DNA from: an uncultured Holophagales bacterium
GTDB lineage: Bacteria > Acidobacteriota > Thermoanaerobaculia > Multivoradales > UBA5704
Reading direction: 5' to 3'
DNA: 64,000 bases
NCBI GenBank assembly: GCA_963842525.1
Contig: CAWJGT010000001.1
Location: 544,001-608,000, forward strand
Both the position numbers and the translations under genes were made by a program. Positions 7,894-29,131 of this stretch are shown here, in pieces (position 1 is the stretch's first letter; each line of letters opens with the position of its first letter). The notes under the pieces were generated by a model. That model saw nothing but the letters and a program-made list of their open reading frames with translations. It did no database searches and had not been told where the DNA came from.

Positions 7894-9446
<1,553 letters not shown>

Positions 9447-10508: not shown

Positions 10509-10909
10509 GATTTCCTCCTGCGCTTGCGGGGTCGCGTTCGATTGCGGTAGCGCGCCAGGACTCTGCGGATGGCGGCCGCGGTGAGCGGGCCTCGGCCACT
10601 CTGGAAGAGCAGCTCCGGTTGGCCCCAAAGATGTGTCTGGTTGAGCCAGAGGATCAGGTGCGCGCCGAGGTCGTCGGGCAGGGCTCTGGACCAGCGGAAG
10701 CCCTGGCGGCGGACGGAGACGACCACGCGGCGCCTGGTGGTCATGGCGATCGCCGAGGCGCGGAGGGCGGCGATCTCGGCGGAGCTCAAACCGGCCGCGG
10801 CGAGCACGAGGATGGCGCTGTCGCGCAGGCCCAGGGGACGGCCGCGGTGCATTTCGCCCGGATTCACCCGCGCAAGGAGCGCACGCGCCTGCTCGCGGTT
10901 CAGGGGCAT
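10505..10909 (-). CDS. Truncated/degenerate tyrosine-recombinase-like protein
   Basis: GLRDSAILVLAAAGLSSAEIAAL resembles Xer box I without the catalytic Arg; no HxxR or Tyr region. Confidence 0.55.
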   Translation of the reverse strand: MPLNREQARALLARVNPGEMHRGRPLGLRDSAILVLAAAGLSSAEIAALRASAIAMTTRRRVVVSVRRQGFRWSRALPDDLGAHLILWLNQTHLWGQPELLFQSGRGPLTAAAIRRVLARYRNRTRPRKRRRKS

Positions 10910-12256
10910 CAGAAGGGATCCGGTCCGGCCGGGGCCGGGGTCGCTCGGTTGCGGAAGGAGGTGGTGGAGCCGGCCCAGGTCAGCTCGATGGTGCCGGTCT
11001 GCCCGTGCCGGTGCTTCGCGACGATCACCTCGGCGAGGCCTCGGAGGGTGTCGTCGTCGGGGTTGTAGACCTCGGGACGGTGGATGAAGGCGACCTGGTC
11101 GGCGGCCTGCTCGATGGCCCCGGACTCGGCCAGGTCGGCGAGCTGGGGCCGGGGATCGCTGCGGCGGGTGAGCTCTCGATTGAGTTGGGAGAGGACGAGG
11201 ACGACGACGCCCAGCTCGCCGGCGAGCTCTTCGAGGCGCTGGGTGATGTGCGCGATCTCCAGGCGCCGTTGCTCGAAGCGGGCTCCGGCATTGACGAGCT
11301 GGAGGTAGTCGACGACCAGGAGGGCCAGGTCGGGATACCGGGCTTTGAGCCACCAGGCCCTCGCCTCCAGATCGCGCAGGACGAGGCCAGGTGTGTCGTC
11401 GAGGTAGAGCGGGGCCGCCAGCATGCGCCGGGTGGCGGCGTACAGCTCCTGCCACTGGCGGCCGGAGAGGTGGCCGGCTCGCATGTAGCGGGCGGCGACA
11501 TCGGCTTCGGCGGAGCCGAGCTTCATGCCCAGCTCGTCGGAACGCATCTCCAGGGAAAAGACTCCGACCGGCTTCTGCAGGTCCACGGCGACATGGCGGG
11601 TGAGGTCGAGGGCGAGAGAGGTCTTGCCCATGCCGGGCCGTCCGGCGAGGACGTAGAGGCCGCCTTGCAGGAGGCCGGGGCCGAGGCGATCCCAGGCCGG
11701 GTAGCCGGTGGCGAGGCCCTGGAGGGTCTCGGGGCGGCCCTCCTCGATGGTGAGGAGGAGGCGGTCGAGCACCTGGCCGGCCCCCGCCCAGCGGACGCGT
11801 GCGGCGCGGCCGAGGAGGTGATCGGCGGTGTCACGGAGGCCGGCCAGGCAGCTCGGCGACGGGGCGGGCGGTGGTGGCGGTCTCGATGATGGTCTTCCGG
11901 GTGCCGGCGATGAGGTCGCGGCGGACGCTTCGTTCGCGGACGATCTCGGCGTATTCGTCGAGGCGGTCGAGGTCGGGCAGGTCGAGGTCGAGGGTGGCGA
12001 GGTAGGCCGGGCCGCCGACGTCGGCCAAAACGCCGGCCTGCTCGAGGTGGGCCTGGAGGGTGAGGAGGTCAGGGGTGGAGCCGGCGTCGGCGACGTCGAG
12101 GAGGGCCTGGTAGAGGACGCGATGGCGATCGACGTACCAGTCGCGCGGCTCCAGGCGGGCGCGCACCTGGACGATGCGCATCGGTTCCAGGAGGAGGGCG
12201 CCGAGGACGGCTCTCTCGGCTTCTTCGCTGTGGGGAAGGACGAGCTTGCGCTTCAT
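10909..12256 (-). CDS. dnaB: Replicative DNA helicase DnaB (phage), one frameshift near 11848
   Basis: N-terminal PHSEEAERAVLG; GRPGMGKT, VVDYLQL, LSQLNR, ESGAIEQAAD, KHRHG. Confidence 0.9.
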
Positions 12257-13131
12257 GACCTTGCCTTTCTCAGGCGGACGTCGTTGCCGCCTGTGCGGAC
12301 GCGGAGCCCGGAGAGCCAGCGGGAGAGCAGGGGCGGGGGCGTGGCAGCGTTGGGGTTGCGCAGCAGCTCGGGGAGGAGCTGGCTGGTGACGACGGTGGGC
12401 AGACAGGCCTCGTCCCGGGTGCGGGTGATGAGGATCAGGCGCTCCATGTACCAGTCGGCGGCGGCGCCGGAGAGGGGCTCGTCGAGGACGAGGAGGGGGG
12501 TGGCCAGGAGGGGGCCGAGGACCTCTTCGGCGGCGGCGAAGTCGCGCTGGATGCGTCGCGCCAGCTCGGGGCCGGAGATCCAGCGTCCACGCCTTCCGGT
12601 GCGGAGGTGCTCGGCGAGCAGGACGATGGCGAGGGATGTTTTGCCGGTCCCGGTGGGTCCCCAGAGGGCGACCCACCGGGGGGTGCCGGACCAGCTCTGC
12701 AGGGCTTCGGGCCAGGGGCGCTGGAAGTGGGTGGACCAGCTTTCGCGGGTGAGGCCGCGGAAGAGCTTGGGGATGCCGGCGCCGGCTTCGGTGAGGGCGG
12801 GCACGGAGGTGTGGGCGTCGTGGCAGGTGTGACAGAGACCGTCGGTGGGGATGGCGGTGAAGGCGATCTGGGCTTCGCCGCACTTGCGGCAGACCCAGGG
12901 CCGGCCGAACGAGCCCTCTCCCCCTGGCCCCCTCTCCCGTGCGTCCGCCGGCCCTCCGCCCCGAACGGGAGAGGGGGAATGCGAACCCTCACCCCCCTGG
13001 CCCCCCTCTCCCAGCCGCACTCCCTCCTCCCGGGCGAGGGGGGAATGGGTCCTCACCCCCTGGCCCCCTCTCCCATCGCTCTCCCTTCCACCGGGAGAGG
13101 GGGGACGCAGGCCGTTGTCTTCGTGGGTCAT
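12253..13131 (-). CDS. DnaC/IstB-like ATPase (helicase loader) with N-terminal repeat insertion
   Basis: CxxC pairs, GPTGTGKT, LLVLDE, PTVVTSQ; lies between the initiator and dnaB. Confidence 0.8.
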   Translation of the reverse strand: MTHEDNGLRPPSPGGRESDGRGGQGVRTHSPLAREEGVRLGEGGQGGEGSHSPSPVRGGGPADARERGPGGEGSFGRPWVCRKCGEAQIAFTAIPTDGLCHTCHDAHTSVPALTEAGAGIPKLFRGLTRESWSTHFQRPWPEALQSWSGTPRWVALWGPTGTGKTSLAIVLLAEHLRTGRRGRWISGPELARRIQRDFAAAEEVLGPLLATPLLVLDEPLSGAAADWYMERLILITRTRDEACLPTVVTSQLLPELLRNPNAATPPPLLSRWLSGLRVRTGGNDVRLRKARS

Positions 13132-15433: not shown

Positions 15434-15769
15434 ATGAGAGATCCAGAGGCGGAGGTGGAGGCCATCCGACAGGGGATTCGTGATCTCGCTCGACAGAACG
15501 ACCGTGGCTTCGCGTGGATCGATCGGAAGCTAGGATGGAGCGAGGCGACCACGAGCCAGATCATGCGAGGCCGCATCAAGCTCCAGGTGATGCACGTCTT
15601 TCAGATCCTCGAACTCTTTAAGGTCGAGCCTGAGGACTTCTTCGGGAATTTGTATGGCAAGCCGATAGAGACGGCGCGCCAGATGATGGCGCGCCGCCAC
15701 CTACACGCCGAGGCGCCGCAGGTCCGGCGGGACAGCCTAGGCCGCAGGAAGGAGACGTCTAAAACTTAG
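15434..15769 (+). CDS. CI-like HTH regulator (module 1, rightward)
   Basis: IDRKLGWSEATTSQIMRGRIKL...PEDFF; extended -10 TGGTATGCT just upstream. Confidence 0.8.
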   Translation: MRDPEAEVEAIRQGIRDLARQNDRGFAWIDRKLGWSEATTSQIMRGRIKLQVMHVFQILELFKVEPEDFFGNLYGKPIETARQMMARRHLHAEAPQVRRDSLGRRKETSKT

Positions 15770-16896
15770 ACCGCGACTGCTGGAATTGGTTGCCGAGGCG
15801 CCGGCTGCAAAAAGATTTCCTTCGATGCCAGCATGAGGGTTCGCACGACCTGCCCAACGGTAGAGGGCATGACCTCGAACCGAAGACGACGTGCAACGGC
15901 GGCCTCCGGCCCGATGCCAAGAGCTTCGAATAAGGGTTGTACCGCATTGACAGCAGCGAGCACTTCAGCCAGTCGGTGCTGGCGGGCCAAGACGATTCCC
16001 AGATCGAGCCGACAAAGGGCCTCTTCATAGAAAAGGCCAGCTTTAGCATAGGCTTCGCCCGTGCGGCGAAGGAGCTGCTCGGCGGACTCATCCAGGCCCA
16101 ACGCTTCATCGATGTGAGCCACCAGCCAAAGACGATGCGCCTGCACGAGGGGTTCATGTCTAAGCTCGTCGAACAGTGGCTCTGTCGCGGAATAGACGGC
16201 CCGTGCGTGACGCGGCCGACCTTGGTCAACTAAGTTCCACGCCAACGTATGGGAGATGGAGGCAGCGAGATGAGGGTCGAGGCTAGGCTCAACCCGATTC
16301 ATTGCTTTCTCCGCAAGCCGCACGGCGCGGATGGGATTCCGATTTTTGCCAGCGACCATGGCTTCGACAATAAGGCAGCGAGTAAAGCCGTTTTCGTCGC
16401 CAGCCGCCTCATAAAACGCTCGAGCCCGCGCCAAACTGGATTGAGCCAAATGAAAGCGCCGCCAATCGCGAAACAGAGAGCCGCGTAACTCCCACAACCT
16501 CGCAGCGAGAAGTGCACTGCCTGTTCCGAGGCTCAAGGCTTCTTCTGCCACGGCAAGCGAGGCTTCGGCCTCTGGGAAGTGCGCCAGCAGCCTAAGGCTG
16601 TTTCCCCTCTCGCACCAGGCTGCTCCTCGGGCATCTTGATAATGCTGTACTGGTCTTCTGTCGCAAACTGCGTCAGCGAGGATTGTTGCAAGTTCCGCCC
16701 AATGCACCATACCGCCGATGTCTGTGAAGCGAAGCGAAAAGCTGTAATCACTAAAGCTAAGAATGTCCTCCGTAGAAACGCTCCGCGGAGGATTGGAGGC
16801 TAACAGGAAACGTCTCGAAGGAGGGTGAGCCTTGAAGCGGTCAAGCAATATAGAAGAATCACGGCGCGCGTGGAGGATCATAGGATATAATGACAT
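15766..16896 (-). CDS. TPR-repeat protein (module 1, putative peptide receptor)
   Basis: TPR helices (AWCERGNSLRLLAHFPEAE, HTLAWNLVDQGR); similar to 18418-19509; start placed downstream of its own promoter. Confidence 0.8.
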   Translation of the reverse strand: MSLYPMILHARRDSSILLDRFKAHPPSRRFLLASNPPRSVSTEDILSFSDYSFSLRFTDIGGMVHWAELATILADAVCDRRPVQHYQDARGAAWCERGNSLRLLAHFPEAEASLAVAEEALSLGTGSALLAARLWELRGSLFRDWRRFHLAQSSLARARAFYEAAGDENGFTRCLIVEAMVAGKNRNPIRAVRLAEKAMNRVEPSLDPHLAASISHTLAWNLVDQGRPRHARAVYSATEPLFDELRHEPLVQAHRLWLVAHIDEALGLDESAEQLLRRTGEAYAKAGLFYEEALCRLDLGIVLARQHRLAEVLAAVNAVQPLFEALGIGPEAAVARRLRFEVMPSTVGQVVRTLMLASKEIFLQPAPRQPIPAVAV

Positions 16897-16921
16897 TATT
16901 AATGAACGCTTGGCGGAGAAC

Positions 16922-16950
16922 ATTCTCCCCGCGCGCGCGATGAGTGTCAA
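16922..16950 (-). promoter_or_regulatory. Sigma70-type promoter for TPR gene 1
   Basis: TTGACA, 17 bp spacer, GAGAAT on the minus strand. Confidence 0.6.
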
Positions 16951-16970
16951 GAACCTCCCTTCCCGGCCTT

Positions 16971-17234
16971 TTAGCCTCCGCACCTACCGTTAGGGTCAAG
17001 GCAACCGCCTCCTTCAGAGGTTGGCGCAACCCCATGGGGCGGAGACTTCGGATCGGGTACCACCCCGTCAGCAAGCCAGGCGGCGAGGTCGCTCCAGATG
17101 CTGGAGAACCAGCCGAGCACCGAGGCGCGGACCGCGGTTGGGGCTGCCTTTTCCTGAGCCGCGAGATGCGACGGCAGGGATGCGAGCGCGATGGCGATCG
17201 CGCTGGCCGCCATGAGTTTGCGGAACATGGTCAT
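16971..17234 (-). CDS. Secreted peptide precursor (module 1), C-terminus EGGGCLDPNGRCGG
   Basis: GGAGG RBS, Sec signal peptide, Trp-rich amphipathic helix, Pro-rich linker. Confidence 0.85.
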   Translation of the reverse strand: MTMFRKLMAASAIAIALASLPSHLAAQEKAAPTAVRASVLGWFSSIWSDLAAWLADGVVPDPKSPPHGVAPTSEGGGCLDPNGRCGG

Positions 17235-18417: not shown

Positions 18418-19509
18418 TTACTCGCTGGCGGTGCTGCGACGGGCGGGCTGGCGGACTTCCCTTTCCAGGTAGTGCGCGACCGTCTTGAGCAGCTCGGCTT
18501 TGGGATAGGCCATCGCATCGCGGAGGAGGAGGGCGGCTGTGCTCTCGCGGGCGATCCCGAGGGTACCGAAGACCTCGTGCACCTCGGCGCAGAGGTCGCG
18601 GGCCTCGCTGGTGCGTCCTGCGGCGGCCAGGAGCGCCGCCAGATGAAGGGTCGCGATGGCCTGCTCGTACAGCATGCCGACCGCGGCGAAACCCTCGCGG
18701 CAGCGCTCGTAACCCTGCTCCGCAGCGAGCGGGTGGCCGAGCCCGTCGTCGATGCGGGCGTTCAGGAGCACGATCCGGATGGCGATGCCGGGCTCTCTGC
18801 GGGAGAAGAAGAGGCGGCTGCACTGCCGGCTGAGGGCGTGGGCGTGTTCATATTTTCCGGCATCGCAGAGGCCCCAACAAAGGCTCTGAAGGCCGGAAAG
18901 CCGCAGCTTGTCATCGGCCCGATCGTCGATCGCAGAGAGGGCGCGGACGAAGGCCACGATCGCCTTTTGCGGCTCCCCCGCCTCTCGCAGTGCAATACCT
19001 TCGCTGATCAGAGCCGAGGCGTAGTTGGCGGAATCGCCAAGGGACTGGAAGAGAGCTGCGGCAGCGCGGAAGCTCGATGCCGCCGAGTCGAGGTGGCGAA
19101 GATCATGAAGCAGGCCGCCCTCGATCCAGCGCAGCTCCGCCCCAAGGACGGGCTTCTGCGAGCCGGAGGCCCATGCCTCCTTGGCCTGCTCCAGCGCTGT
19201 TGCTGACAAGTTGAACTCGGCCCGGCGGCGGTGCGCATTGGAGAGGTGCAGGTAGGCGCGGCAGAGAGCGTCGGAGGCCGAGGCGCTCGGTGGAAGCTGG
19301 CGTGCCACGGCGACGGCCGCCTCCGCACAGTCGAGCATCCTGTCGGGGTCGCCATACCGATGCTCGAAGCACTGCTCGACGAGGTGCTCGACCAGAGCGG
19401 GCTCGCGATATCGACGGAGCGAGCCGGCCGCCAGGAGGCGGCGAGGACGCGGGAGCTCGAGGAGCTCTCGGGCGAGCTCGTGGGGTGGGCGGAATCGGCT
19501 TGGCAGCAC
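18418..19509 (-). CDS. TPR-repeat protein (module 2, putative peptide receptor)
   Basis: RAYLHLSNAHRRRAEF, ALISEGIALREAGEP; paralogue of 15766-16896. Confidence 0.85.
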   Translation of the reverse strand: MLPSRFRPPHELARELLELPRPRRLLAAGSLRRYREPALVEHLVEQCFEHRYGDPDRMLDCAEAAVAVARQLPPSASASDALCRAYLHLSNAHRRRAEFNLSATALEQAKEAWASGSQKPVLGAELRWIEGGLLHDLRHLDSAASSFRAAAALFQSLGDSANYASALISEGIALREAGEPQKAIVAFVRALSAIDDRADDKLRLSGLQSLCWGLCDAGKYEHAHALSRQCSRLFFSRREPGIAIRIVLLNARIDDGLGHPLAAEQGYERCREGFAAVGMLYEQAIATLHLAALLAAAGRTSEARDLCAEVHEVFGTLGIARESTAALLLRDAMAYPKAELLKTVAHYLEREVRQPARRSTASE

Positions 19510-19903: not shown

Positions 19904-20195
19904 CGTCTTTGTCTCCCCTGCGGCGGCGGCGCCCTCCATGGGCGGAGGCCCCGCATTGGGGCAAGTGTGGCAATGGGAGGAAGGGACGTAAAGGACGGCA
20001 AGGACAGCAGAAACGGATGCGGGCGGGGCCCGGGCAGGTTTTGCCCTACCTGGAAGAGAGCTGAGAAGTGGGGACGGACACGGAGGATGCTCGGGCGGAG
20101 CTGAGAAGGGGCCGGCGTGGCGGTATGGCCTCAACTGCCCGCCTGCAGCACCGCGGGAGACCAGAGGATACAGGAGCCTAGCCAGGCACTCACGG

Positions 20196-20326
20196 CGGAG
20201 GAAACGGCTGGCACCTATCCGGCACCTATCCGGGCTGACCGGAGGACACGTGAGCCAGACTCGGAGGAAACGGCTGGCACCTATCTGGAGCACCTATCCC
20301 GCCCCTATTTCCAGCAGCACCTATCC
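20196..20326 (+). repeat. Cluster of five GCACCTATC motifs
   Basis: Copies at 20211, 20222, 20277, 20290, 20317; 24-bp direct repeat at 20196 and 20262. Confidence 0.8.
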
Positions 20327-20374
20327 GGCAGGTTATAATACTGCGAACTTACCACTTGGGTGAGGGTCATAAGG

Positions 20375-22297
20375 ATGAAATGGAACGAGGGCCTAAAAGG
20401 CGCCTATCTGCGGATCGCAGCGACGAATAGATCCCCACTTCGCATTGTCGCTGGGCCGGGCACCGGTAAGACCTTTTCGCTGATGCGGAGAGTTGCTCGC
20501 CTCCTTCAAGAAGACGGGGTGAAGCCGAAGCGCATCTTCGTCTCGACATTTACTCGGACCGCAGCGCGAGATCTTGAGAAGACCCTTCGGGAGATGGACG
20601 CCGAAGGCGCCACCGACGTGCGCGCCGGTACTATCCACTCCTTCTGTTTCTCGGTGCTTGCCCGAGAGGAGGTTTTCCTTGCTACAGGGCGATCCCCCCG
20701 ACCCCTACTTACAGCGGAAGAGCGGTTCCTGTTGGAAGACCTTAGGGGGGAGCCTTTTGGGAAGTTGTCGGATTGCAAGAATTTGCTTCAAGCTTTCAAC
20801 GCCGCATGGGCAAGGCTACAGAGCGAAGAGCCTGGCTGGCCCGCCAATGCCATCGATCGGCAGTTTGAGGCAACCCTTGATGGTTGGTTGCGCTTTCATC
20901 AAGGGATGTTGATCGGAGAAATCGTTCCGGTCACACTCAGTTTCCTGCGAGACAATCCGTCGACGCCCATACTGACAGCGTTCGACCATGTTATCGTAGA
21001 CGAGTACCAGGACTTAAATCGTTCCGAGCAGGTCTTGCTTGATGTTCTTGCTGCGAATGGAAGATTTACCTTGGTTGGCGACGAGGACCAGTCAATCTAC
21101 TCGTTCAAGCATGCGCACCCGCAAGGAATTTCGCAGTTCAAGGTTAATCATCCTGAGACTCACGACGAGAGTCTCGAAGAGTGCCGCCGATGTCCGCAGA
21201 CTATAGTGAAAATGGCAAACGCACTAATTACATACAATCATAACCGTCAACCCAGGGAATTGGAAATAAGGAGTGAAAACTGCCAGGGTGAAGTGCATAT
21301 AATTCAATGGTGGGATATAGCTGAAGAGGCACAGGGGATAGCTCGGTTTATCCATGCTCGTGTCCAAGGAGATGTGGTCGGTGCTGGAGAGGTCCTCGTA
21401 CTTGCACCGCGACGACAGTTCGGCTATGCGATCCGGGACGCGCTGAAGAGGCTGGGAACGCCAGCTGTCAGTTTCTTCCAGGAGGAAGCTCTGGATGGCG
21501 ATCCAAAGAAGTTAGGAACGAGCCAAGCTCAACAAGCTTTCACACTGCTGAACCTACTGGCCGACCTGGAAGACCGCGTTGCGCTCCGCTGCTGGTGTGG
21601 TTTTGGTAGCCCGTCGCTTCGTAGCGGCGCCTGGAAGCGTCTTCGCCGCCACTGTGAGCAGACTGGACAGTCACCGAGGGAGGCTCTCGAGCAGATGATC
21701 CGGGGGGAGTTGACGCTCCCCAACTGCCAGGAGCTCGTTAACCGGTTCGCACTGCTTAAGGAGAGTCTTTCTGGCTTGACTGACCTATCGGGCAAGGGCC
21801 TGATTGACAGGCTATTTCCGGCAGATCAGCGATGGGCCCAGGCGCTTCGAGCGGCGGCTGAGACCATCGACAGAGAGGATGTCGATGCTCTAAAGCTAAG
21901 AGAGGGGGTGCGGACTGCGATTAGTCAGCCAGAGTTGCCGGTCGATGTCGATTATGTCCGCGTGATGAGCCTTCATAAGTCGAAAGGTTTGACGGCCGAT
22001 CTGGTTGTTGTCACTGGCTGCATCCAGGGTCTCATCCCGAAGGTTGATCTCGACCTAACGCCCGACCAGCAGGCAGTGATGCTTGAAGAGCATAGAAGAC
22101 TGTTTTACGTGGCATTGACTCGCGCTCGACAAACCTTGGTTTTGTCCAGCGTGATGCGCTTACCTCAAGAGTTGGCCTACATCTACCAGTTGGGCGCGGG
22201 GGCTGGCACCATGGCGACTACGTTTCTGAGCCAGCTAGGCCCTACACGGCCAGTGCCGGTCCAAGGTAAAACCTTTCTACGCAATCAGGGGTTGTAG
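20375..22297 (+). CDS. UvrD/Rep/PcrA-like SF1 helicase (cargo)
   Basis: AGPGTGKT, VDEYQDLN, VGDEDQSIYSF, MSLHKSKGL, RRLFYVALTRAR; TATAAT at 20334. Confidence 0.92.
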   Translation: MKWNEGLKGAYLRIAATNRSPLRIVAGPGTGKTFSLMRRVARLLQEDGVKPKRIFVSTFTRTAARDLEKTLREMDAEGATDVRAGTIHSFCFSVLAREEVFLATGRSPRPLLTAEERFLLEDLRGEPFGKLSDCKNLLQAFNAAWARLQSEEPGWPANAIDRQFEATLDGWLRFHQGMLIGEIVPVTLSFLRDNPSTPILTAFDHVIVDEYQDLNRSEQVLLDVLAANGRFTLVGDEDQSIYSFKHAHPQGISQFKVNHPETHDESLEECRRCPQTIVKMANALITYNHNRQPRELEIRSENCQGEVHIIQWWDIAEEAQGIARFIHARVQGDVVGAGEVLVLAPRRQFGYAIRDALKRLGTPAVSFFQEEALDGDPKKLGTSQAQQAFTLLNLLADLEDRVALRCWCGFGSPSLRSGAWKRLRRHCEQTGQSPREALEQMIRGELTLPNCQELVNRFALLKESLSGLTDLSGKGLIDRLFPADQRWAQALRAAAETIDREDVDALKLREGVRTAISQPELPVDVDYVRVMSLHKSKGLTADLVVVTGCIQGLIPKVDLDLTPDQQAVMLEEHRRLFYVALTRARQTLVLSSVMRLPQELAYIYQLGAGAGTMATTFLSQLGPTRPVPVQGKTFLRNQGL

Positions 22298-22335
22298 AGT
22301 GAAATGAGGGGCCAAATTACAGGATATCAAGGAGC

Positions 22336-25300
22336 GTGGCGAAAGGCGAAGCGGCGGATCAGGAGTGCAAGTTCATGAAAAAATTACCAGCGAAGACCAT
22401 TTCTCCACGGTGCCGCATTGGGCTCGTACAATTAGCGACGATTCCAGCCTACGTTACACCCAAAGTTGAGTGGCTTCGCGAACCTGCTCCTCCTCTTGAC
22501 GAAAAGACGCAACCATATCTAGCTGGCATAAAGAATAAGCCGGGGATTCAGGGATTGAGGGATGCAATATATGAAACCTACGGTCAGGACCTATTTTCAA
22601 AACTTCGCCTAATCCTTCAGGCGGTTGCGAGCCACCACGTGGATCTTCTTGTCTTTCCTGAGTACTCAATTCCTTTGTCAGCACTAAAGCAGCTGTCCCG
22701 CTGGGCGAGAGAAAACTCTTCGACGATTATCGCTGGAAGTCACACTGTAGTAATAACTCCTACTGCTCTCAAAGAATACGCAGATTGTGGTTTAAGAGCA
22801 GTTCAGGAATCGCCCAACGACTTTGCTAGAAAAGCGTTATCGCCAATATTCTTTGCAGATGGCCGTACAGATTTCCGCCTCAAGGTTACAAGATCCAAAT
22901 GGGAGCCAGATCTTCTGCTCGGTGAGGCTGACCAAGAACCTTTTACGATTACCCTTCAGGGGCAGGAAATCAGCGTTCAACTACTAATCTGTATTGATGC
23001 ATTAAGGCTTGGCATGGTCGGACGTGGCGCCAAACTGCTGGCCGTCTGTGCGTTGAGTCCACAGATCGAGCCTTTCCAGACTCTCTTTACACAAGCCCTC
23101 ATCAATGAAGTTCCCGGCGTAATAGCCAATAGTGCAGTATACGGAGGTAGCCAATTTTCATTGACGGGCCCATCCACAGCTAGTGACTTTGCTGAGCTTC
23201 TCAAGGTTGGCACTTCCGATGAGGTGCTCCTGATAGCCGATGTCGAACTCGGGAGGCAGTTCCAGAAACGGCGGTCTGTGGACTCCGAGCCCTCGTGGAA
23301 GCTCGTCGCGCGAAAGCCACTGCTGTATAGGGCGGTCTCATCACACGCCCGCTTAAGTGATTTGTTGGAATCGGCGAGGGCCAATACTACACTGCAAGTC
23401 CCCTTATCGGTACTCAATGAATTTGCGTTAGACCCTCATTTGCCAAAAGCTATGAGGCAACAACTTGAGATGTTTATTGGTGCATCTCAGGAAGGAGCGA
23501 TTACACCTGCGGAAGGGCAACTTCTACTAGATGCAATCTCAATTCCTGAGGTAATCCTTCCCTTCTGGAATCGGTGCCGACAAGGTTTAGAGGAATCCAA
23601 TCGCCAGATTGCCACACTTCTTCCTGATTACCCAGATGATGGCAGTCTAACAGACGCACTTCAGACCGTGAGCTATGGCATGAGGCACGCGAAAGGTAGG
23701 CTTCTGCCGCTGACTGTCCAACCATCACCACTTCGCGAAGGATCGGCGCAGGCTCCCCATCTATTCGTCAACCGCGAAGACGAGGTAGGTCGGCTTAGTA
23801 GACGACTTCTGAAAGATCCGGTCACCCTGGTAACAGGCCTGGCAGGAATCGGAAAGAAAACTCTTGTACAGAAGGTGATCGATGAGCTTTTTCCTCGGTA
23901 TCACAAGAAAGCCATTCACTGCGTCGATGGGATGACACCTTCTGAACTCCTGGAAGCACTTGCTGCAGCTCTTCTGGCGCCAGAACGGCTGAAGAAATTG
24001 GACGCTGCAAGCAAAGTACGTGAATGCCACATCTTGGTCGTTCACGATCTGGATCTGGTAGATTTTAGAGGCTCCGGCTTAGTGGATCTAGTGCAGTATT
24101 GGGAATTGCTCCACGGTACGGCGATCAGGATAGTTTTTCTTGCCTCAAGAAACATAAGCGAGCTTGATATTGCTAGCTTATCGCTAGGACCGCTCAATGA
24201 TGATGATACCAGGAGAATATTTGATTATTACTGCCGCCTATTTGGGGTATCGGCAATTGGGCAGTCAGATATTGTAGCTCATTTGTGGGGTTATCCGCTT
24301 GCAGCGCGAACAGCAGCCACGCTTCTGAGGGAAGGCGGTGGAGAAACGTTTGCGAAGCTTCGCTTCTTGAAGAAATTGCGGAGCGAGGTTGCAAAGATCC
24401 TCTTTAGAGGTTTGTCGCTCAGCGGCGAGGAGCGAAAGGCTTTGGAGGCGTTATCTATCTTTAGGAGGCCTGTAGAAGCTGAACTCGTGGAGAGGCTTGG
24501 AATTCAGGATAGTATTGATGGTCTCGAAAGCCGCTTCATACTATCACGCGAAGACGGGAGAATTTTTGTTATCCCACTTGTCCGGGAAGTGGCAATCGAA
24601 GATTGGATTAAACAGGGCGCTGCAACTGCTTATCATCGTATCGCGGCGAACCACTTCAAGGACCAAATTGCGTCCTCCGACAGCATACGCAGATTTGAAG
24701 CCACAGATGAAGCCGTCTATCATTTCTCCAGCATAGGCGACTTCGTTACAGCTCGCTCGCTCGGTGGTGATTGGTTTCAGCGGGCTCGCTCGGCATCACG
24801 AGATCTATATAGGCGCCGTGGCTATAAGGAAAGTGCGGCCATATGTGAAAAGGCACTTGAAACAACGCCGACAGATCGCGATTTTCTCGTAAGGCTTGTT
24901 ATGTGTTCCTCTAAATTGCGGAGGTGGCCTCGCGGGAAGGCGTGCATTGAACGACTGCGTTCTCTTGGTTCAGTGCCAGCCAAGGCTCTTACTTCCTATG
25001 GAGAGGCACTTGCGCGCGCGGGAATTCGACAGGAAGGGAAAGCCTATCTAGAGGAATGCCTAGAACAGCACCCGGGAGACCCCTATGCACTGGCTGTTCT
25101 TGCTAACGTGCACTTAGATGAGGGTAATCTGGCTCTTGCGAGAAACCTTGCTGACGAGGCACTAGAAGGAGATGCTCTGTGTGTGCGAGCGCTTGAAGTG
25201 GCGAGTATCATATCGCGCAGCGAGGGAAACAACGAGCGCGCGTATGAACTGGCTTATCGTCTCATGGGCATAGACCCCCAAAGAGGGGAAAGGATCTTTC

Positions 25301-25377
25301 AAAAGGCGCGAAGCGCTCTTGTTAAGAAATACGGCGGGGGTGTGCCCGGTGACCTGCTGAAGAGGCTTGAGTCTTGA
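22336..25377 (+). CDS. Nitrilase (CN-hydrolase) - STAND NTPase - TPR fusion
   Basis: RIGLVQL, LLVFPEYSI, IIAGSH, LICIDAL; FVNREDE, GLAGIGKK, GYPLA; C-terminal TPRs; AT-richer than flanks. Confidence 0.8.
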   Translation: MAKGEAADQECKFMKKLPAKTISPRCRIGLVQLATIPAYVTPKVEWLREPAPPLDEKTQPYLAGIKNKPGIQGLRDAIYETYGQDLFSKLRLILQAVASHHVDLLVFPEYSIPLSALKQLSRWARENSSTIIAGSHTVVITPTALKEYADCGLRAVQESPNDFARKALSPIFFADGRTDFRLKVTRSKWEPDLLLGEADQEPFTITLQGQEISVQLLICIDALRLGMVGRGAKLLAVCALSPQIEPFQTLFTQALINEVPGVIANSAVYGGSQFSLTGPSTASDFAELLKVGTSDEVLLIADVELGRQFQKRRSVDSEPSWKLVARKPLLYRAVSSHARLSDLLESARANTTLQVPLSVLNEFALDPHLPKAMRQQLEMFIGASQEGAITPAEGQLLLDAISIPEVILPFWNRCRQGLEESNRQIATLLPDYPDDGSLTDALQTVSYGMRHAKGRLLPLTVQPSPLREGSAQAPHLFVNREDEVGRLSRRLLKDPVTLVTGLAGIGKKTLVQKVIDELFPRYHKKAIHCVDGMTPSELLEALAAALLAPERLKKLDAASKVRECHILVVHDLDLVDFRGSGLVDLVQYWELLHGTAIRIVFLASRNISELDIASLSLGPLNDDDTRRIFDYYCRLFGVSAIGQSDIVAHLWGYPLAARTAATLLREGGGETFAKLRFLKKLRSEVAKILFRGLSLSGEERKALEALSIFRRPVEAELVERLGIQDSIDGLESRFILSREDGRIFVIPLVREVAIEDWIKQGAATAYHRIAANHFKDQIASSDSIRRFEATDEAVYHFSSIGDFVTARSLGGDWFQRARSASRDLYRRRGYKESAAICEKALETTPTDRDFLVRLVMCSSKLRRWPRGKACIERLRSLGSVPAKALTSYGEALARAGIRQEGKAYLEECLEQHPGDPYALAVLANVHLDEGNLALARNLADEALEGDALCVRALEVASIISRSEGNNERAYELAYRLMGIDPQRGERIFQKARSALVKKYGGGVPGDLLKRLES

Positions 25378-25726
25378 ACCTAGCCGGCCGAGGGCTGCTG
25401 GTCGAGCGAAAACTCCTCATTGAGGTTCTACGAGAAGGTGCGCGACTGTTACTTGGCCGCTGTGATCGAGTAAGTTTCAGCTAAGGTGAGCTTGAAGCCG
25501 TTGACCTTTGGCCAGACGAGCCGGGACGAGACGGCTGGCACCTAGCGCCGGCTCGACCGTGCTTCCCCGGAACCTACCGACCTTGGCCGAGGGCTTTTCG
25601 GCCCGGCGCTTCGGGCTCGCCTGAGGTTTCGGAATCCGGTGGCACCTATCCGGGCAGGCTACCACGCCGCGGCACCTCTGCCGGGATGTCGCAGCCTAGG
25701 AAAGTCATCGGCGCGTGGTTCTGCGC

Positions 25727-25981
25727 TCAGTGCACTACGGGCTGCAAACGACTTTCCCAATCGATCGGGAAGAAGCGAGCCTTCTCCCTCTCTCCTCTGA
25801 GCGAGTAGCCAGGCATCCCTTCTCTCTGATAGGCGGTCACTTCGAAGACTTCGCCATCGACTTCGACCCGATCGCCTGGCTGGTAGGCGGGGGGCACCTC
25901 CCTCCAGCGGGCCTGGAAGTCGGCGATTCGGGCCTCGGCCTCGCGGAGCAGCTCGGCGAGTTGGTCGGGGGTCAGTGCCAT
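25727..25981 (-). CDS. Small hypothetical protein
   Basis: MALTPDQLAELL...; GC-rich gene between AT-richer cargo genes. Confidence 0.5.
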   Translation of the reverse strand: MALTPDQLAELLREAEARIADFQARWREVPPAYQPGDRVEVDGEVFEVTAYQREGMPGYSLRGEREKARFFPIDWESRLQPVVH

Positions 25982-26217
25982 TGGGGGATTATAGGGCAAG
26001 GCGGGTGGCGCGGGGGGCGAAGGCCTCACTATCTCGGTGAAGAGGCTTGGCACCTATCGCCGGGGGTGATACCTAATCCGGGCACTTAGAAGCTGGCGAG
26101 TTTCAACTTGAAAGCAAACGGTTCCTTTGACAGACGACATCGACGACAAGCAATAGTTATCTTCCTCCTAAATGTTGAGCGTCGTCACGTATAGGGTGAT
26201 ACTATTAGGCATCAAGC

Positions 26218-28977
26218 ATGCGAGAGGAAATTATGACCAGAAAGGGTTCCGAGCCTCTTAGGACTCCGGGCGACAGCGTAGCTGAAGACGTTCATGCCAA
26301 AGGTTGGGATTTCGAACAACTCCTCGGCCAGCTAGAGGAAGAATATAGGAAGTCAGGTATACAGGACTTCTGGCACCGAGAGAGAGACGCTATCCGCTCT
26401 GCTCTTCAGAGCGTAGCTAGCACGCTCCCGAGAGCTCGTTACTCGCCCGATAAGGTGCTCGGCGTTGGAGGCTCGGGCGTGGTCATACGGTTGAAGGATT
26501 CGCTATTTCCGAGAGTAGACAACGCGCTCAAATTTCCTCGCCCAGTTGCTGGCAAGGTGGAACTCGTGGCAGAGTTGCTAGGAAGAGAGATTCAATATTT
26601 GGCGCAGCTCCGCCATCCTGGTATTGTAAAAATTCTGTACTATAGGTACGCCAAAGACATACCGGGCTATGGAACACTTCCGTTTTACTTAATGGAGGCG
26701 GTAGACGGCGTATCGTCCGGTAGGTTCGTTCGCAAGGAACTAACGCAGCAGCAGCAGCTCGTGGATCTAGTGCACAACACCGCTGCCATATTACAATATC
26801 TTCATACACTTCCAATCGGAGCCTTCGCCCACTTAGACCTCAAGCCCGATAATTTTATGGTTGACCACACAGGCCAACCTATTATGATTGATCTCGGCAC
26901 CTGCAAGCGCATTAGTCCAGAGGTCGATAATACTACCGTTGCATGCACGCGCTCATTCGCTCATCCTCAACTGATTCGCCAACTGACGGAAGATCCTTCT
27001 GACGAGAATCGCGCAAGGGGGGAAGTTCTACGCTCGGCTATCAGATTAAATTGGGATCTCTGGTCTTTTGGGTTAATGCTTATATCGTGGCTTGGATTTG
27101 ATCATAACACCGGGCATCTTGAGGTGCCCAGAATTCTTGATCTTTTAGATCCATATACCAGAAAGTATCTGCTACTCCTCTCTGCTCGCCTGCTTGCCGA
27201 GAATCCACCCACGTGGTTGCTGAAGAGAGTCGGCCTTAGTCATGAGTTCCTTAAGACGGTCCCCATTACTACCGCCTCGGAACTTAAGGAAGCGTTAGAC
27301 AGACTTGATGGCTCACAAGGTCCACTTGCTAGAGTCCAGGAGTTTCAGGTTCGAGGAAGTGGCACTATTCAGGCTGCACCTGGTACACATGTACCGGTTA
27401 CGAAGGCTTTGTCAGCGGTCCTTGAGCATAGACTTTTTAGAAGGCTAAACACGATCAGTCAACTGGGGTTAGTTTCGCAGGTGTACCCTGGCGCAAAGCA
27501 TACTCGAAGAGAGCACAGTTTGGGCACCTATGCAAATACCCTTAAGATGGTTCGGGTACTGTATAACGATCCTGTATCGCCGCTGTTCCGTCAAATTATT
27601 ACGGATGACGACTGCCGAGATTTGCTCCTAATTTCGCTACTTCATGATATAGGACACTTCCCTCTAGCCCACGACTTGGAGGATGTAGACAACAAACTAT
27701 TTAACCATGTTGAACTTACTCAGGCAATGCTCAAGGGCCTGTGGGAGAAGAAGAAAAGAGGCAGTACAAAGGTTAGCTTTGATTCACTCGAAGCCGTCTT
27801 CACTCTGTGGGGTACCACAAGCGATCGCCTAATGTCAATTTTGGCCGCAAAACCAACGAGCAATGACTCTAGCCCGAAACGCAAGTTGCTTCGCTCAATA
27901 ATAAGTGGACCCATTGATGCGGATAAGCTAGATTATTTGTTTCGAGATGCTCGACATCTCGACCTGCCATACCCAAACGGCGTCGATGTAGATCGCTTAT
28001 TCAAGTGCCTCACAACAGTCGTCGTGGACAGAATCGAAGGAGGCTACAAAGACATACCAGTTGTTGGGGTGCATGCAAAGGGGAAGGTATCTGCCGAGTT
28101 CCTTAGCATGGCGAGGTACGCCATGTTTTCTCAAGCATATTGGCATCATGCGGTGCGTGCGCAAAAGTCGATGCTCCTGCGGGCAGTTGAAGCCTTGCTA
28201 GGTGAGGAGAGCGAGTCAAAGATTAGAGAACTGCAATCAGCTTTTGTGTCGATGGTGTGTTCTCTCCCAGAGAGTCTATATGATTCAAGAGAAGTTAGGA
28301 GCTTGTTTGAAGATGATCCTCAAGCGGCTGACCGGTTAACTTCACCTCTTGGAGGGCACGGAACAGATCTTGCCGCCACTGATGCCGCCGTTCTTTCGTG
28401 GCTTTACAAGCGCCTGACTGATGCTAACCGTCCAGAGTCTTTGCTGATAGAGGGAATCCTCAGGCGCAACCTGTTCAAGCGACTTTGGGTGGTAAGCAGA
28501 GATATGGAGAGTCAGCGGTGGGACAAGATCGTCCGGATTTGGGAGAAGCTGGATAGGATCCAACGGCACAAGGTAGCTCACGAGTTTGAAAAAAAGGTCG
28601 CCGGCCGAATTGCAACAGAGGGATTGCAGAGCATAACTTCGATGGCTGCGGAAAGCGCAGAGGACAAGGTCGATCGCTTAACACGGGGGCAGAGCCCCTG
28701 GTTGCTAATCGATATACCAGGCGACCGACCTGGCTCTGAGATTGGACTTTATCATGTACTTGAGAGCCAACGTCGTAAGCTGCGGAAGGATGATCGGGCT
28801 GTCGGCGAGCTGGAGAAATCAATAGTCTGGGAAGAGTACGCTCGCAACCTTCTAAGGGTTGCAGGCAAGGTTAGGATCTTTTGCGCTCCTGATTTGGTTG
28901 ACAGCATAGAAGCTTCGGTTCCTTGGGAAAAAGGAATCGAAGATCTTACCACCGTCCTTGAGCGTGCCGAGGTTTGA
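26218..28977 (+). CDS. Ser/Thr kinase fused to HD-domain (SAMHD1-like dNTP triphosphohydrolase)
   Basis: LGVGGSGVV, ALK, HLDLKPDN, IDLG; then RRLNTISQLG..VYPGAKHTRREHSLG, LLHDIGHFPLAH, DADKLDYLFRD. Confidence 0.88.
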   Translation: MREEIMTRKGSEPLRTPGDSVAEDVHAKGWDFEQLLGQLEEEYRKSGIQDFWHRERDAIRSALQSVASTLPRARYSPDKVLGVGGSGVVIRLKDSLFPRVDNALKFPRPVAGKVELVAELLGREIQYLAQLRHPGIVKILYYRYAKDIPGYGTLPFYLMEAVDGVSSGRFVRKELTQQQQLVDLVHNTAAILQYLHTLPIGAFAHLDLKPDNFMVDHTGQPIMIDLGTCKRISPEVDNTTVACTRSFAHPQLIRQLTEDPSDENRARGEVLRSAIRLNWDLWSFGLMLISWLGFDHNTGHLEVPRILDLLDPYTRKYLLLLSARLLAENPPTWLLKRVGLSHEFLKTVPITTASELKEALDRLDGSQGPLARVQEFQVRGSGTIQAAPGTHVPVTKALSAVLEHRLFRRLNTISQLGLVSQVYPGAKHTRREHSLGTYANTLKMVRVLYNDPVSPLFRQIITDDDCRDLLLISLLHDIGHFPLAHDLEDVDNKLFNHVELTQAMLKGLWEKKKRGSTKVSFDSLEAVFTLWGTTSDRLMSILAAKPTSNDSSPKRKLLRSIISGPIDADKLDYLFRDARHLDLPYPNGVDVDRLFKCLTTVVVDRIEGGYKDIPVVGVHAKGKVSAEFLSMARYAMFSQAYWHHAVRAQKSMLLRAVEALLGEESESKIRELQSAFVSMVCSLPESLYDSREVRSLFEDDPQAADRLTSPLGGHGTDLAATDAAVLSWLYKRLTDANRPESLLIEGILRRNLFKRLWVVSRDMESQRWDKIVRIWEKLDRIQRHKVAHEFEKKVAGRIATEGLQSITSMAAESAEDKVDRLTRGQSPWLLIDIPGDRPGSEIGLYHVLESQRRKLRKDDRAVGELEKSIVWEEYARNLLRVAGKVRIFCAPDLVDSIEASVPWEKGIEDLTTVLERAEV

Positions 28978-29131
28978 AAGAAATGGAATCAGGGCCAACC
29001 TACGGCTCCTGGGCAGATCAATTAAAGAGGTCGATCTATAGGGTGAAGGATGTCGTTTTCACCTGTCCTCCTCCTTTTCACAATCGCTGGCGATCCAAAG
29101 AGACTGGCCTCAAACACGTTTTCGGACGCCC

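Follow-up and report, generated by a model that had tools for sequence, protein, structure and literature searches.

In a 64,000-nucleotide stretch of the genome of an uncultured Holophagales bacterium (assembly GCA_963842525.1, contig CAWJGT010000001.1, positions 544,001 to 608,000), referred to here as the window, the open reading frame (ORF) at 22336..25377 on the plus strand encodes a protein in which, judging from its sequence, an intact nitrilase active site, the intact motifs of a STAND nucleoside triphosphatase (NTPase) and an array of tetratricopeptide repeats (TPRs) are united in one autonomous mobile gene. We consider it fairly probable that this nitrilase-STAND-TPR protein is a single-gene conflict sensor of the Avs/NLR-like kind, most likely anti-phage, which is carried as prophage cargo and has the nitrilase as its output. 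The layout agrees with an earlier note made from the letters of this DNA alone, which had read a carbon-nitrogen (CN) hydrolase fold at the N-terminus, with a candidate catalytic triad including the Glu of FPEY and the Cys of LICID, a central P-loop STAND domain and C-terminal TPRs, all of it in AT-richer DNA; each of these features is borne out by the results described below.

A nitrilase-superfamily domain on a STAND-TPR protein

The frame is uninterrupted and, its coordinates including the stop codon, encodes 1013 residues when counted from the GTG at 22336, which is the numbering used throughout. The true start is probably the ATG at 22375 (Met14), for a product of 1000 residues, because a database protein of identical sequence (P0004) is 1000 residues long and because the AGGAG located 9 nt upstream of this ATG is better spaced than the AAGGAG found just 1 nt upstream of the GTG. 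The gene has a G+C content of 50.8%, compared with 67.8% for the window outside 20000-29000.

The N-terminal domain (residues 14-345, 22375..23370) is a member of the nitrilase superfamily, in a divergent branch, and this assignment is secure by its predicted fold and its active site even though Pfam misses it. The CN_hydrolase family (PF00795) gave no match to the protein at E<=0.1, its gathering score not being reached, and it is absent among the 25 listed of the 32 Pfam families matched by 45 relatives. Nothing relevant was returned for the protein by NCBIfam, a phmmer search of PDB with residues 1-355 gave no match at E<=10, and the sole sequence hint from the library scans of the protein was the PADLOC model RT_UG5-nitrilase (E 3.5e-6, residues 88-135). 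The AlphaFold2 model of residues 14-345, built on a 100-row alignment, has a mean predicted local distance difference test score (pLDDT) of 95.7 and a predicted template modelling score (pTM) of 0.93, and it displays the four-layer alpha-beta-beta-alpha fold of the superfamily. Every top match listed by Foldseek for this model is a nitrilase-superfamily enzyme (E ~1e-10, probability 1.00). The structure search that the earlier note had called for was completed with VIA-align, which placed 239 chains at Z>=8, the best 50 of these all being members of the nitrilase superfamily at Z 19-21; they include a Pyrococcus amidase (6ypa_B; Z 21.4, root-mean-square deviation 4.3 over 224 aligned residues) and a beta-ureidopropionase (8pt4_C; Z 21.2, deviation 3.0 over 230 residues). 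In the BFVD library of viral structures, the search found one phage CN hydrolase, which is unrelated.

The active site can be followed at the level of single residues. When a profile of short family members was aligned by hhalign to a CN hydrolase recognised by Pfam (an ORF of locus L008, PF00795 E 2.9e-25), the probability was 96.2%, and FPEY paired with FPEY, K183...E190 with K...E, and LICIDA with LICYDA. FPEY corresponds to residues 107-110 and LICID to residues 217-221, so that the catalytic Glu-Lys-Cys triad and the second Glu of the superfamily are all present, as E109 (22660-22662), K183 (22882-22884), E190 (22903-22905) and C219 (22990-22992). The catalytic lysine is K183; the nearby K188 varies in larger alignments. 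No exchange of E109, K183 or C219 occurs in 45 full-length relatives or in a 100-relative alignment. Across 244 domain sequences, a set that was not dereplicated, E109 and C219 are retained in all 244, K183 and H136 in 243 each, N265 in 239 and E190 in 233, with an Asp replacing the latter in 9 more. Since the tetrad is kept in 233 to 244 of these 244 sequences, the domain appears to be under selection as an enzyme, and its active site is, as far as sequence can tell, intact.

The sequence relatives of this domain are found among the nitrilases of defence reverse transcriptases (RTs), in which, as the earlier note had mentioned, nitrilase domains occur. A profile of the full family matched against PDB was dominated by TPR proteins, and the search was repeated with an alignment of the domain only; the best of the 11 sequences then found at E<=10 was DRT1 (9yfd_A, E 7.6e-7), followed by a formamidase at 0.11. 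In this alignment C219 falls on C1116 of DRT1, which the available text of PMC13275509 names as the catalytic cysteine. The PADLOC models RT_UG5-nitrilase and RTasNitrilase matched 25 and 20 of 45 family members, respectively, and hhalign aligned the domain to an RT-nitrilase fusion (P0182) with a probability of 96.1% over 196 columns.

The nitrilase-like domain is followed by a linker (residues 346-470, 23371..23745) without Pfam match and then by the STAND P-loop NTPase with its helical/winged-helix part (residues 471-800, 23746..24735). Residues 480-546 match the Pfam family nSTAND6 just above its cut-off (28.5 against 27.7 bits), while AAA_16, nSTAND1, AAA_22 and ATPase_2 match the STAND part below theirs. 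The P-loop NTPase carries both Walker motifs: in the Walker A sequence GLAGIGKKT (G501-K507, 23836-23856), G501, G506 and K507 are invariant in the 45 full-length relatives, and the Walker B sequence ILVVHD, whose last residue is D571, is kept in at least 60% of them. The helical/winged-helix extension with its GxP and His motifs is also present ahead of the repeats, and here R480 (within F477xxR480), G652 and H796 are invariant, with P654 (in G652-x-P654-L-A) retained in 93%, H767 in 95% and E792 in more than 90% of the relatives. We take the FxxR, P-loop, GxP and His motifs to resemble those of STANDs of the AP-ATPase/NB-ARC type; among the 45 relatives, NB-ARC was matched by 6 and nSTAND6 by 13. 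A phmmer search of PDB with the NTPase part gave nothing below E 0.2. The full-family profile aligns over 454-995 to the STAND-TPR protein PH0952 (6mfv_A) with E 7.1e-33, a score that is largely due to the TPRs.

The C-terminal TPR array, the presumed sensor, occupies residues ~801-1013 (24736..25374) and was recognised in Pfam by TPR_19 (E 5.9e-10), TPR_16, TPR_14, TPR_17, TPR_2 and TPR_9 over residues 861-982. Median identity to 44 relatives is highest in the N-terminal domain (27.5%), lower in the TPRs (18.7%) and lowest of the four parts in the linker (12.6%). In Pfam, PADLOC and NCBIfam, no effector-like domain other than the nitrilase was found in the protein.

Distribution, mobility and neighbouring genes

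An exhaustive phmmer search with residues 14-345 retrieved 324 representatives at E<=0.001; of these, 136 pass E<=1e-10 and 12 pass E<=1e-30. The surroundings of the gene were compared at 87 related loci: 6 from species genomes, 1 from IMG/VR and 80 from metagenomes, the last being the best 80 of 148 stretches that encode relatives among 271 candidates. The six genome loci belong to an Acidobacteriota and a Terriglobia member, two Lachnospiraceae, a Deltaproteobacterium and a member of the Pseudomonadota with a stand-alone hydrolase. The N-terminal domain is present in all 87 loci, which form 57 groups at 85% identity.

The commonest architecture is nitrilase-STAND-TPR, of ~1000-1190 residues. 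A lineage of ~1505-1520 residues has a class III adenylate/guanylate cyclase inserted, together with AAA_16 and TPRs of the MalT type, and proteins of ~1900-1990 residues terminate in pentapeptide and WD40 repeats. At two loci (L017 and L081), the N-terminal domain and the STAND-TPR part are split into two ORFs. The domain is distantly related to P0182, an RT-nitrilase of 1226 residues, and P0169, from a cultured organism, carries the UniRef label 'CN hydrolase domain-containing protein'. The same effector is found on varied switches, as is expected of conflict modules.

Two of these forms deserve a separate mention. The cyclase-bearing one is encoded at L069:5956-10509 and at some 20 near-identical metagenome loci. 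At L080:1703-5502, a stand-alone nitrilase-like ORF of 434 residues overlaps the start of a gene for an 840-residue HerA/TraD-like ATPase (DUF87, TrwB_AAD_bind, PADLOC mad8), a pairing reminiscent of the SIR2-HerA type of defence pairs.

The gene appears to have been acquired horizontally, and its family is sparse and patchy. It is present in none of 5 same-genus genomes, in 2 of 24 same-family genomes and in none of 16 genomes of the other families of the order; among 400 further genomes of the phylum, with five candidates scored per genome, none carries it at E<=1e-10. In 22 of 33 non-redundant loci, the G+C content of the gene lies at least 3 points below that of its flanks, and it lies above it in a single one, with a median difference of -4.7.

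In the window, the gene is cargo of a prophage next to a tRNA-Ala gene (7894-7969). To the right of this tRNA gene there are a serine integrase (phrog_95, 1.2e-82), DnaB, a DnaC-like loader and a replication initiator and, farther right, PHROG matches to a major head protein, a head protease, a portal and a large terminase. The nitrilase-STAND-TPR gene is one of three low-G+C genes (20360-28977) that stand between regulatory genes and a set of minus-strand ORFs, and therefore in the accessory region of the prophage; these minus-strand ORFs are without PHROG match and are presumed to be tail genes. No att-like repeat of the tRNA-Ala end, 13 nt or longer, was found that would mark where the prophage ends on the right.

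The other two genes of this block lie on the same strand. Upstream, with 55.5% G+C and ending 38 nt before the GTG at 22336, a gene at 20360-22297 encodes a UvrD-like helicase of 645 residues (phrog_1967, 1.1e-63). It matches GajB (1.6e-48) and RTasHel (1.6e-46) in PADLOC, matches that are not specific because another UvrD-like ORF of this genome, unannotated and picked at random, outscores it on both. Its identification as the GajB of a Gabija system was discarded, there being no adjacent GajA and, upstream, a 363-residue TPR protein and a 226-residue ORF without family. Candidate roles of this helicase may lie in phage replication, in defence or in counter-defence. Downstream, at 26218-28977 and with 50.3% G+C, there is a gene for a protein of 919 residues in which a Ser/Thr protein kinase (Pkinase, 5.9e-19) is joined to an HD phosphohydrolase with an HD_assoc_2 region. 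The protein matches PD-T4-6 (5.4e-20) and mad6 (3.8e-18) in PADLOC, and its gene is, from these matches, likely a second defence cargo gene of the prophage. A spacer of 840 nt with 61% G+C, which holds an opposite-strand ORF, separates it from the nitrilase-STAND-TPR gene.

No partner gene is conserved beside the nitrilase-STAND-TPR gene, which is a stand-alone gene. By tblastn at E<=1e-5, neither the helicase nor the kinase-HD protein has a match in the 87 related loci, and the largest family among the 894 ORFs of the flanks occurs in just 5 of these loci; the two neighbours were rejected as partners on these grounds.

The neighbourhood was scanned for defence genes in 34 non-redundant loci whose flanks add up to at least 4 kb. 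On each side, the two closest ORFs of 150 residues or more were taken (112 ORFs), and PADLOC matches were accepted at E<=1e-12. As a control, 34 loci of 13 kb were drawn at random from the genome of the window and treated alike; two were left out over a size limit and 32 were scanned (124 ORFs). A defence match was found in 13 of 34 family loci, compared with 5 of 32 control loci (one-sided Fisher p 0.036), in 10 against 2 once generic matches had been removed by the analyst (p 0.015) and, counted by ORF, in 16 of 112 against 5 of 124 (p 0.005). The systems near the family gene include type IIG restriction-modification (L016 and L035), HmaB/HmaC with LmuB (L021), PDC-S15 with IetA (L018), an AriAB/GajA/OLD-like ATPase (L014), SoFic (L028), PDC-S31 (L040), and mad2, mad3 and a weak PifA match (L012, L023 and L010). 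The matches at L005, L027 and L080, to a CspB-type subtilase, a homing endonuclease and the HerA-like partner, are generic or doubtful. Those of the control loci are a MotB-like protein, mad3, TIR-TM, a TPR protein and the UvrD-like ORF. The enrichment in defence neighbours is real and modest, against a control taken from one genome. Together with the cargo position in the prophage and the low G+C content throughout the family, it supports a defence context.

Known relatives, proposed mechanism and alternatives

The systems that share this design are those of Avs/AVAST (Avs2, Avs3 and Avs4), where a single polypeptide likewise begins with an effector, continues with a STAND NTPase and ends in TPRs as the sensor, as the earlier note had already remarked. 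Avs genes are also single, mobile and close to other defence genes. However, their effectors are nucleases, proteases or SIR2 domains, and the effector is a nitrilase here. The accessible part of a recent study of Avs proteins puts the number of their families at over 90 and describes their effectors as activated by tetramerisation of the STAND part (10.64898/2026.08.25.746987).

The nearest sequence relative of the enzyme domain is the nitrilase of DRT1 (UG1) and of the UG5/UG29 class 3 defence RTs, with which it has the E-K-E-C tetrad in common. The switch is a different one: in DRT1/UG5 the nitrilase is C-terminal and is governed by protein-primed DNA synthesis and filament formation, whereas here it is N-terminal and sits on a STAND-TPR switch. 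No RVT match was found in Pfam for the nitrilase-STAND-TPR protein or for its two neighbours. According to the available text of PMC13275509, the nitrilase of DRT1 is the effector of an abortive-infection system and is needed for defence, nitrilases require oligomers for activity, and ATP, GTP or NAD+ are suggested as candidate substrates. The class 3 RT nitrilases form a clade separate from metabolic nitrilases, as stated in the accessible part of PMC9226505.

The NLR-like design is also common to the bNACHT proteins. The NTPase described here matches nSTAND6, AAA_16 and nSTAND1, with NB-ARC in some relatives, and NACHT is absent among the 12 Pfam families that match the protein at E<=0.1. 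PH0952 (6mfv) is alike in its NTPase and TPR part, but the solved protein has no nitrilase domain. The earlier note had not recognised the combination as any named system, and this stands in part. The PADLOC check that it had called for gave models of DRT nitrilases only and no named STAND system, PADLOC v2 returning no Avs model; yet CN-hydrolase already figures among the domains of NACHT-module proteins in a figure legend of 10.1101/2022.07.19.500537. In the literature, we found no paper describing or testing a nitrilase-STAND, nitrilase-Avs or nitrilase-NLR family, a search that did not cover the supplements of the Avs and NACHT surveys, which may list it.

The mechanism that we propose draws on the work on Avs proteins and on the enzymology of nitrilases as summarised in PMC13275509. 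In the resting state, the protein would be a monomer with its nitrilase inactive. The TPR array would bind a trigger which, by analogy with Avs, would be a conserved phage protein, and the NTPase would then oligomerise with ATP and bring the N-terminal domains together. The resulting assembly of nitrilase dimers or tetramers would turn on the hydrolysis of C-N bonds; switching by assembly is suggested because the enzymes of the nitrilase superfamily need homo-oligomers. The active enzyme would destroy an essential amide-bearing molecule, for which NAD+, some nucleotide or cofactor and protein side chains are candidates, and the infected cell would stop growing, sparing the lysogen population and its prophage.

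Such a protein would matter for several reasons. It joins a DRT1-related enzyme to another kind of switch, one that is well understood, and it comes in hundreds of natural forms without any partner gene; it would thereby offer an independent and simpler route both to the substrate of nitrilase effectors and to the rule of their activation by oligomerisation. The bacterial NLR-like sensors would gain one more enzyme class among their effectors, and the gene would be a further example of prophage-borne defence cargo. A more tentative proposal, which we hold to be possible and rather doubtful, is that a single 'immune nitrilase' effector class is used on at least five switches (the RTs of DRT1/UG5, CARF, STAND-TPR, STAND-WD40 and HerA-like ATPases), always with the same essential amide-bearing target. 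If this were true, the STAND form would lend itself best to identifying that target, because one protein contains everything and its on-switch is simple, and the target would represent a new biochemical mode of abortive infection.

Several results weigh against reading the protein as an anti-phage conflict sensor related to the defence nitrilases. The enrichment in defence neighbours is modest and was measured against a control from one genome, some of the matches counted are generic (subtilase, homing endonuclease, pieces of methyltransferases), and 21 of the 34 family loci have no defence match in the four nearest ORFs. Searches by tblastn in sequenced phages and plasmids gave no match, and no phage genes were recognised by PHROGs around the gene in the locus of the closest homologue (L003, 52% identity) or in the IMG/VR contig (L009). 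In PADLOC v2 at E<=0.1, the protein matches four DRT nitrilase models only and none of the STAND defence models, those of Avs and NACHT included; among the 10 PADLOC families matched by the 45 relatives there is no Avs model, newer Avs families lying outside PADLOC v2, and just 3 of these relatives touch the candidate models PDC-M16A or mad8. Regarding the enzyme domain, the E-value obtained by hhalign for the canonical CN hydrolase (2.4e-9) is about that obtained for the RT-nitrilase (3.5e-9). In a FastTree phylogeny of 128 N-terminal domains with the RT-nitrilase and the canonical CN hydrolase, both outgroups fall together, and a sister relation to the DRT nitrilases is not settled by this tree because the branches are long. 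Finally, the architecture with a cyclase and a MalT-type STAND serves ordinary signalling too.

This last point leads to an alternative that we regard as unlikely, in which the protein is a ligand-gated enzyme or signalling protein foreign to defence, whose TPR/STAND part senses a cellular metabolite or protein and switches an amidase of nitrogen or small-molecule metabolism. STAND-TPR proteins are indeed also ordinary regulators, as in the MalT-type and cyclase-STAND ones, the family profile matches the 'TPR sensor' PH0952, one sub-lineage of the family itself carries the class III cyclase with MalT-like TPRs, and the structural neighbours of the N-terminal domain are metabolic amidases; the many loci without a nearby defence match would also be expected. 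What speaks for defence instead is the patchy and sparse distribution, the drop in G+C content relative to the flanks in two thirds of the loci, the prophage cargo position, the fact that no metabolic neighbour is conserved, and the defence nitrilases being the nearest sequence relatives of the enzyme domain. Were the gene not defensive, it would encode a rare ATP-gated amidase. We find it very unlikely that the gene serves the phage, for instance by responding to a rival element or to the host's state and then hydrolysing some host molecule in the interest of lysogeny control, takeover or counter-defence. Its place inside the prophage, between the regulatory and replication genes and the tail genes, would fit this idea, as would a repeated motif, GGCACCTATC, located upstream of the cargo genes, but most of the relatives examined lie outside any recognisable phage context, only one locus was found among the viral contigs of IMG/VR, and the architecture is that of autonomous sensors on the chromosomes of several phyla.

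A slightly smaller chance still is given to a three-gene system with the UvrD-like helicase (20360-22297), the kinase-HD protein (26218-28977) or both. Even though the three genes share their low G+C content and strand, the helicase ends close to the GTG, and both neighbours match defence models (GajB and RTasHel, and PD-T4-6 and mad6), neither has a homologue in the 87 loci and the flank families are not conserved; the helicase matches are, moreover, unspecific, and the long spacer of higher G+C content, with its opposite-strand ORF, intervenes before the kinase-HD gene. The least probable of the readings, which we judge highly improbable, is that of a catalytically dead nitrilase-like domain acting as a scaffold or oligomerisation module, with the output elsewhere. 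In its favour, the domain is missed by Pfam CN_hydrolase, and the nitrilase core of DRT1 is structural in role as well, according to the available text of PMC13275509. Against it stand the near-complete retention of the four catalytic residues in the family and the finding of no other effector-like domain in the protein. On balance, we favour the single-gene sensor with a nitrilase output.

Other observations in the prophage region

The 10-mer GGCACCTATC occurs in six exact copies in the window, all on the plus strand, within 20210-20325 and 25537-26058. The copies lie just upstream of the low-G+C gene blocks, that is, before the start of the helicase gene and between the nitrilase-STAND-TPR and kinase-HD genes. 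If up to one mismatch is allowed, the number of matches rises to 16, where 3.2 would be expected, and none of 100 shuffles reaches it; a 12-mer, CTGGCACCTATC, has only four copies in the 9.9-Mb genome. This repeated motif may serve as an operator or mark cassette junctions.

A second STAND-TPR protein, of 902 residues, is encoded on the minus strand at 47841-50549, in lower-G+C DNA just past the terminase end of the prophage. It has AAA_16 from residue 27, followed by TPR_10 (3.4e-58), TPR_12 and MalT-like TPRs, and no recognisable effector domain.

The DnaB-like helicase of the prophage is found in two frames (10909-12883, minus strand), with its N-terminal part at the end of the ORF at 11831-12883 and its C-terminal part in that at 10909-11772, which could be due to a frameshift, an assembly error or an insertion. 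In the regulatory region of the prophage, two further TPR-containing ORFs on the minus strand, one of 405 residues (15766-16983), in DNA of 57-60% G+C, and one of 363 residues (18418-19509), stand beside divergent small ORFs that are helix-turn-helix-like.

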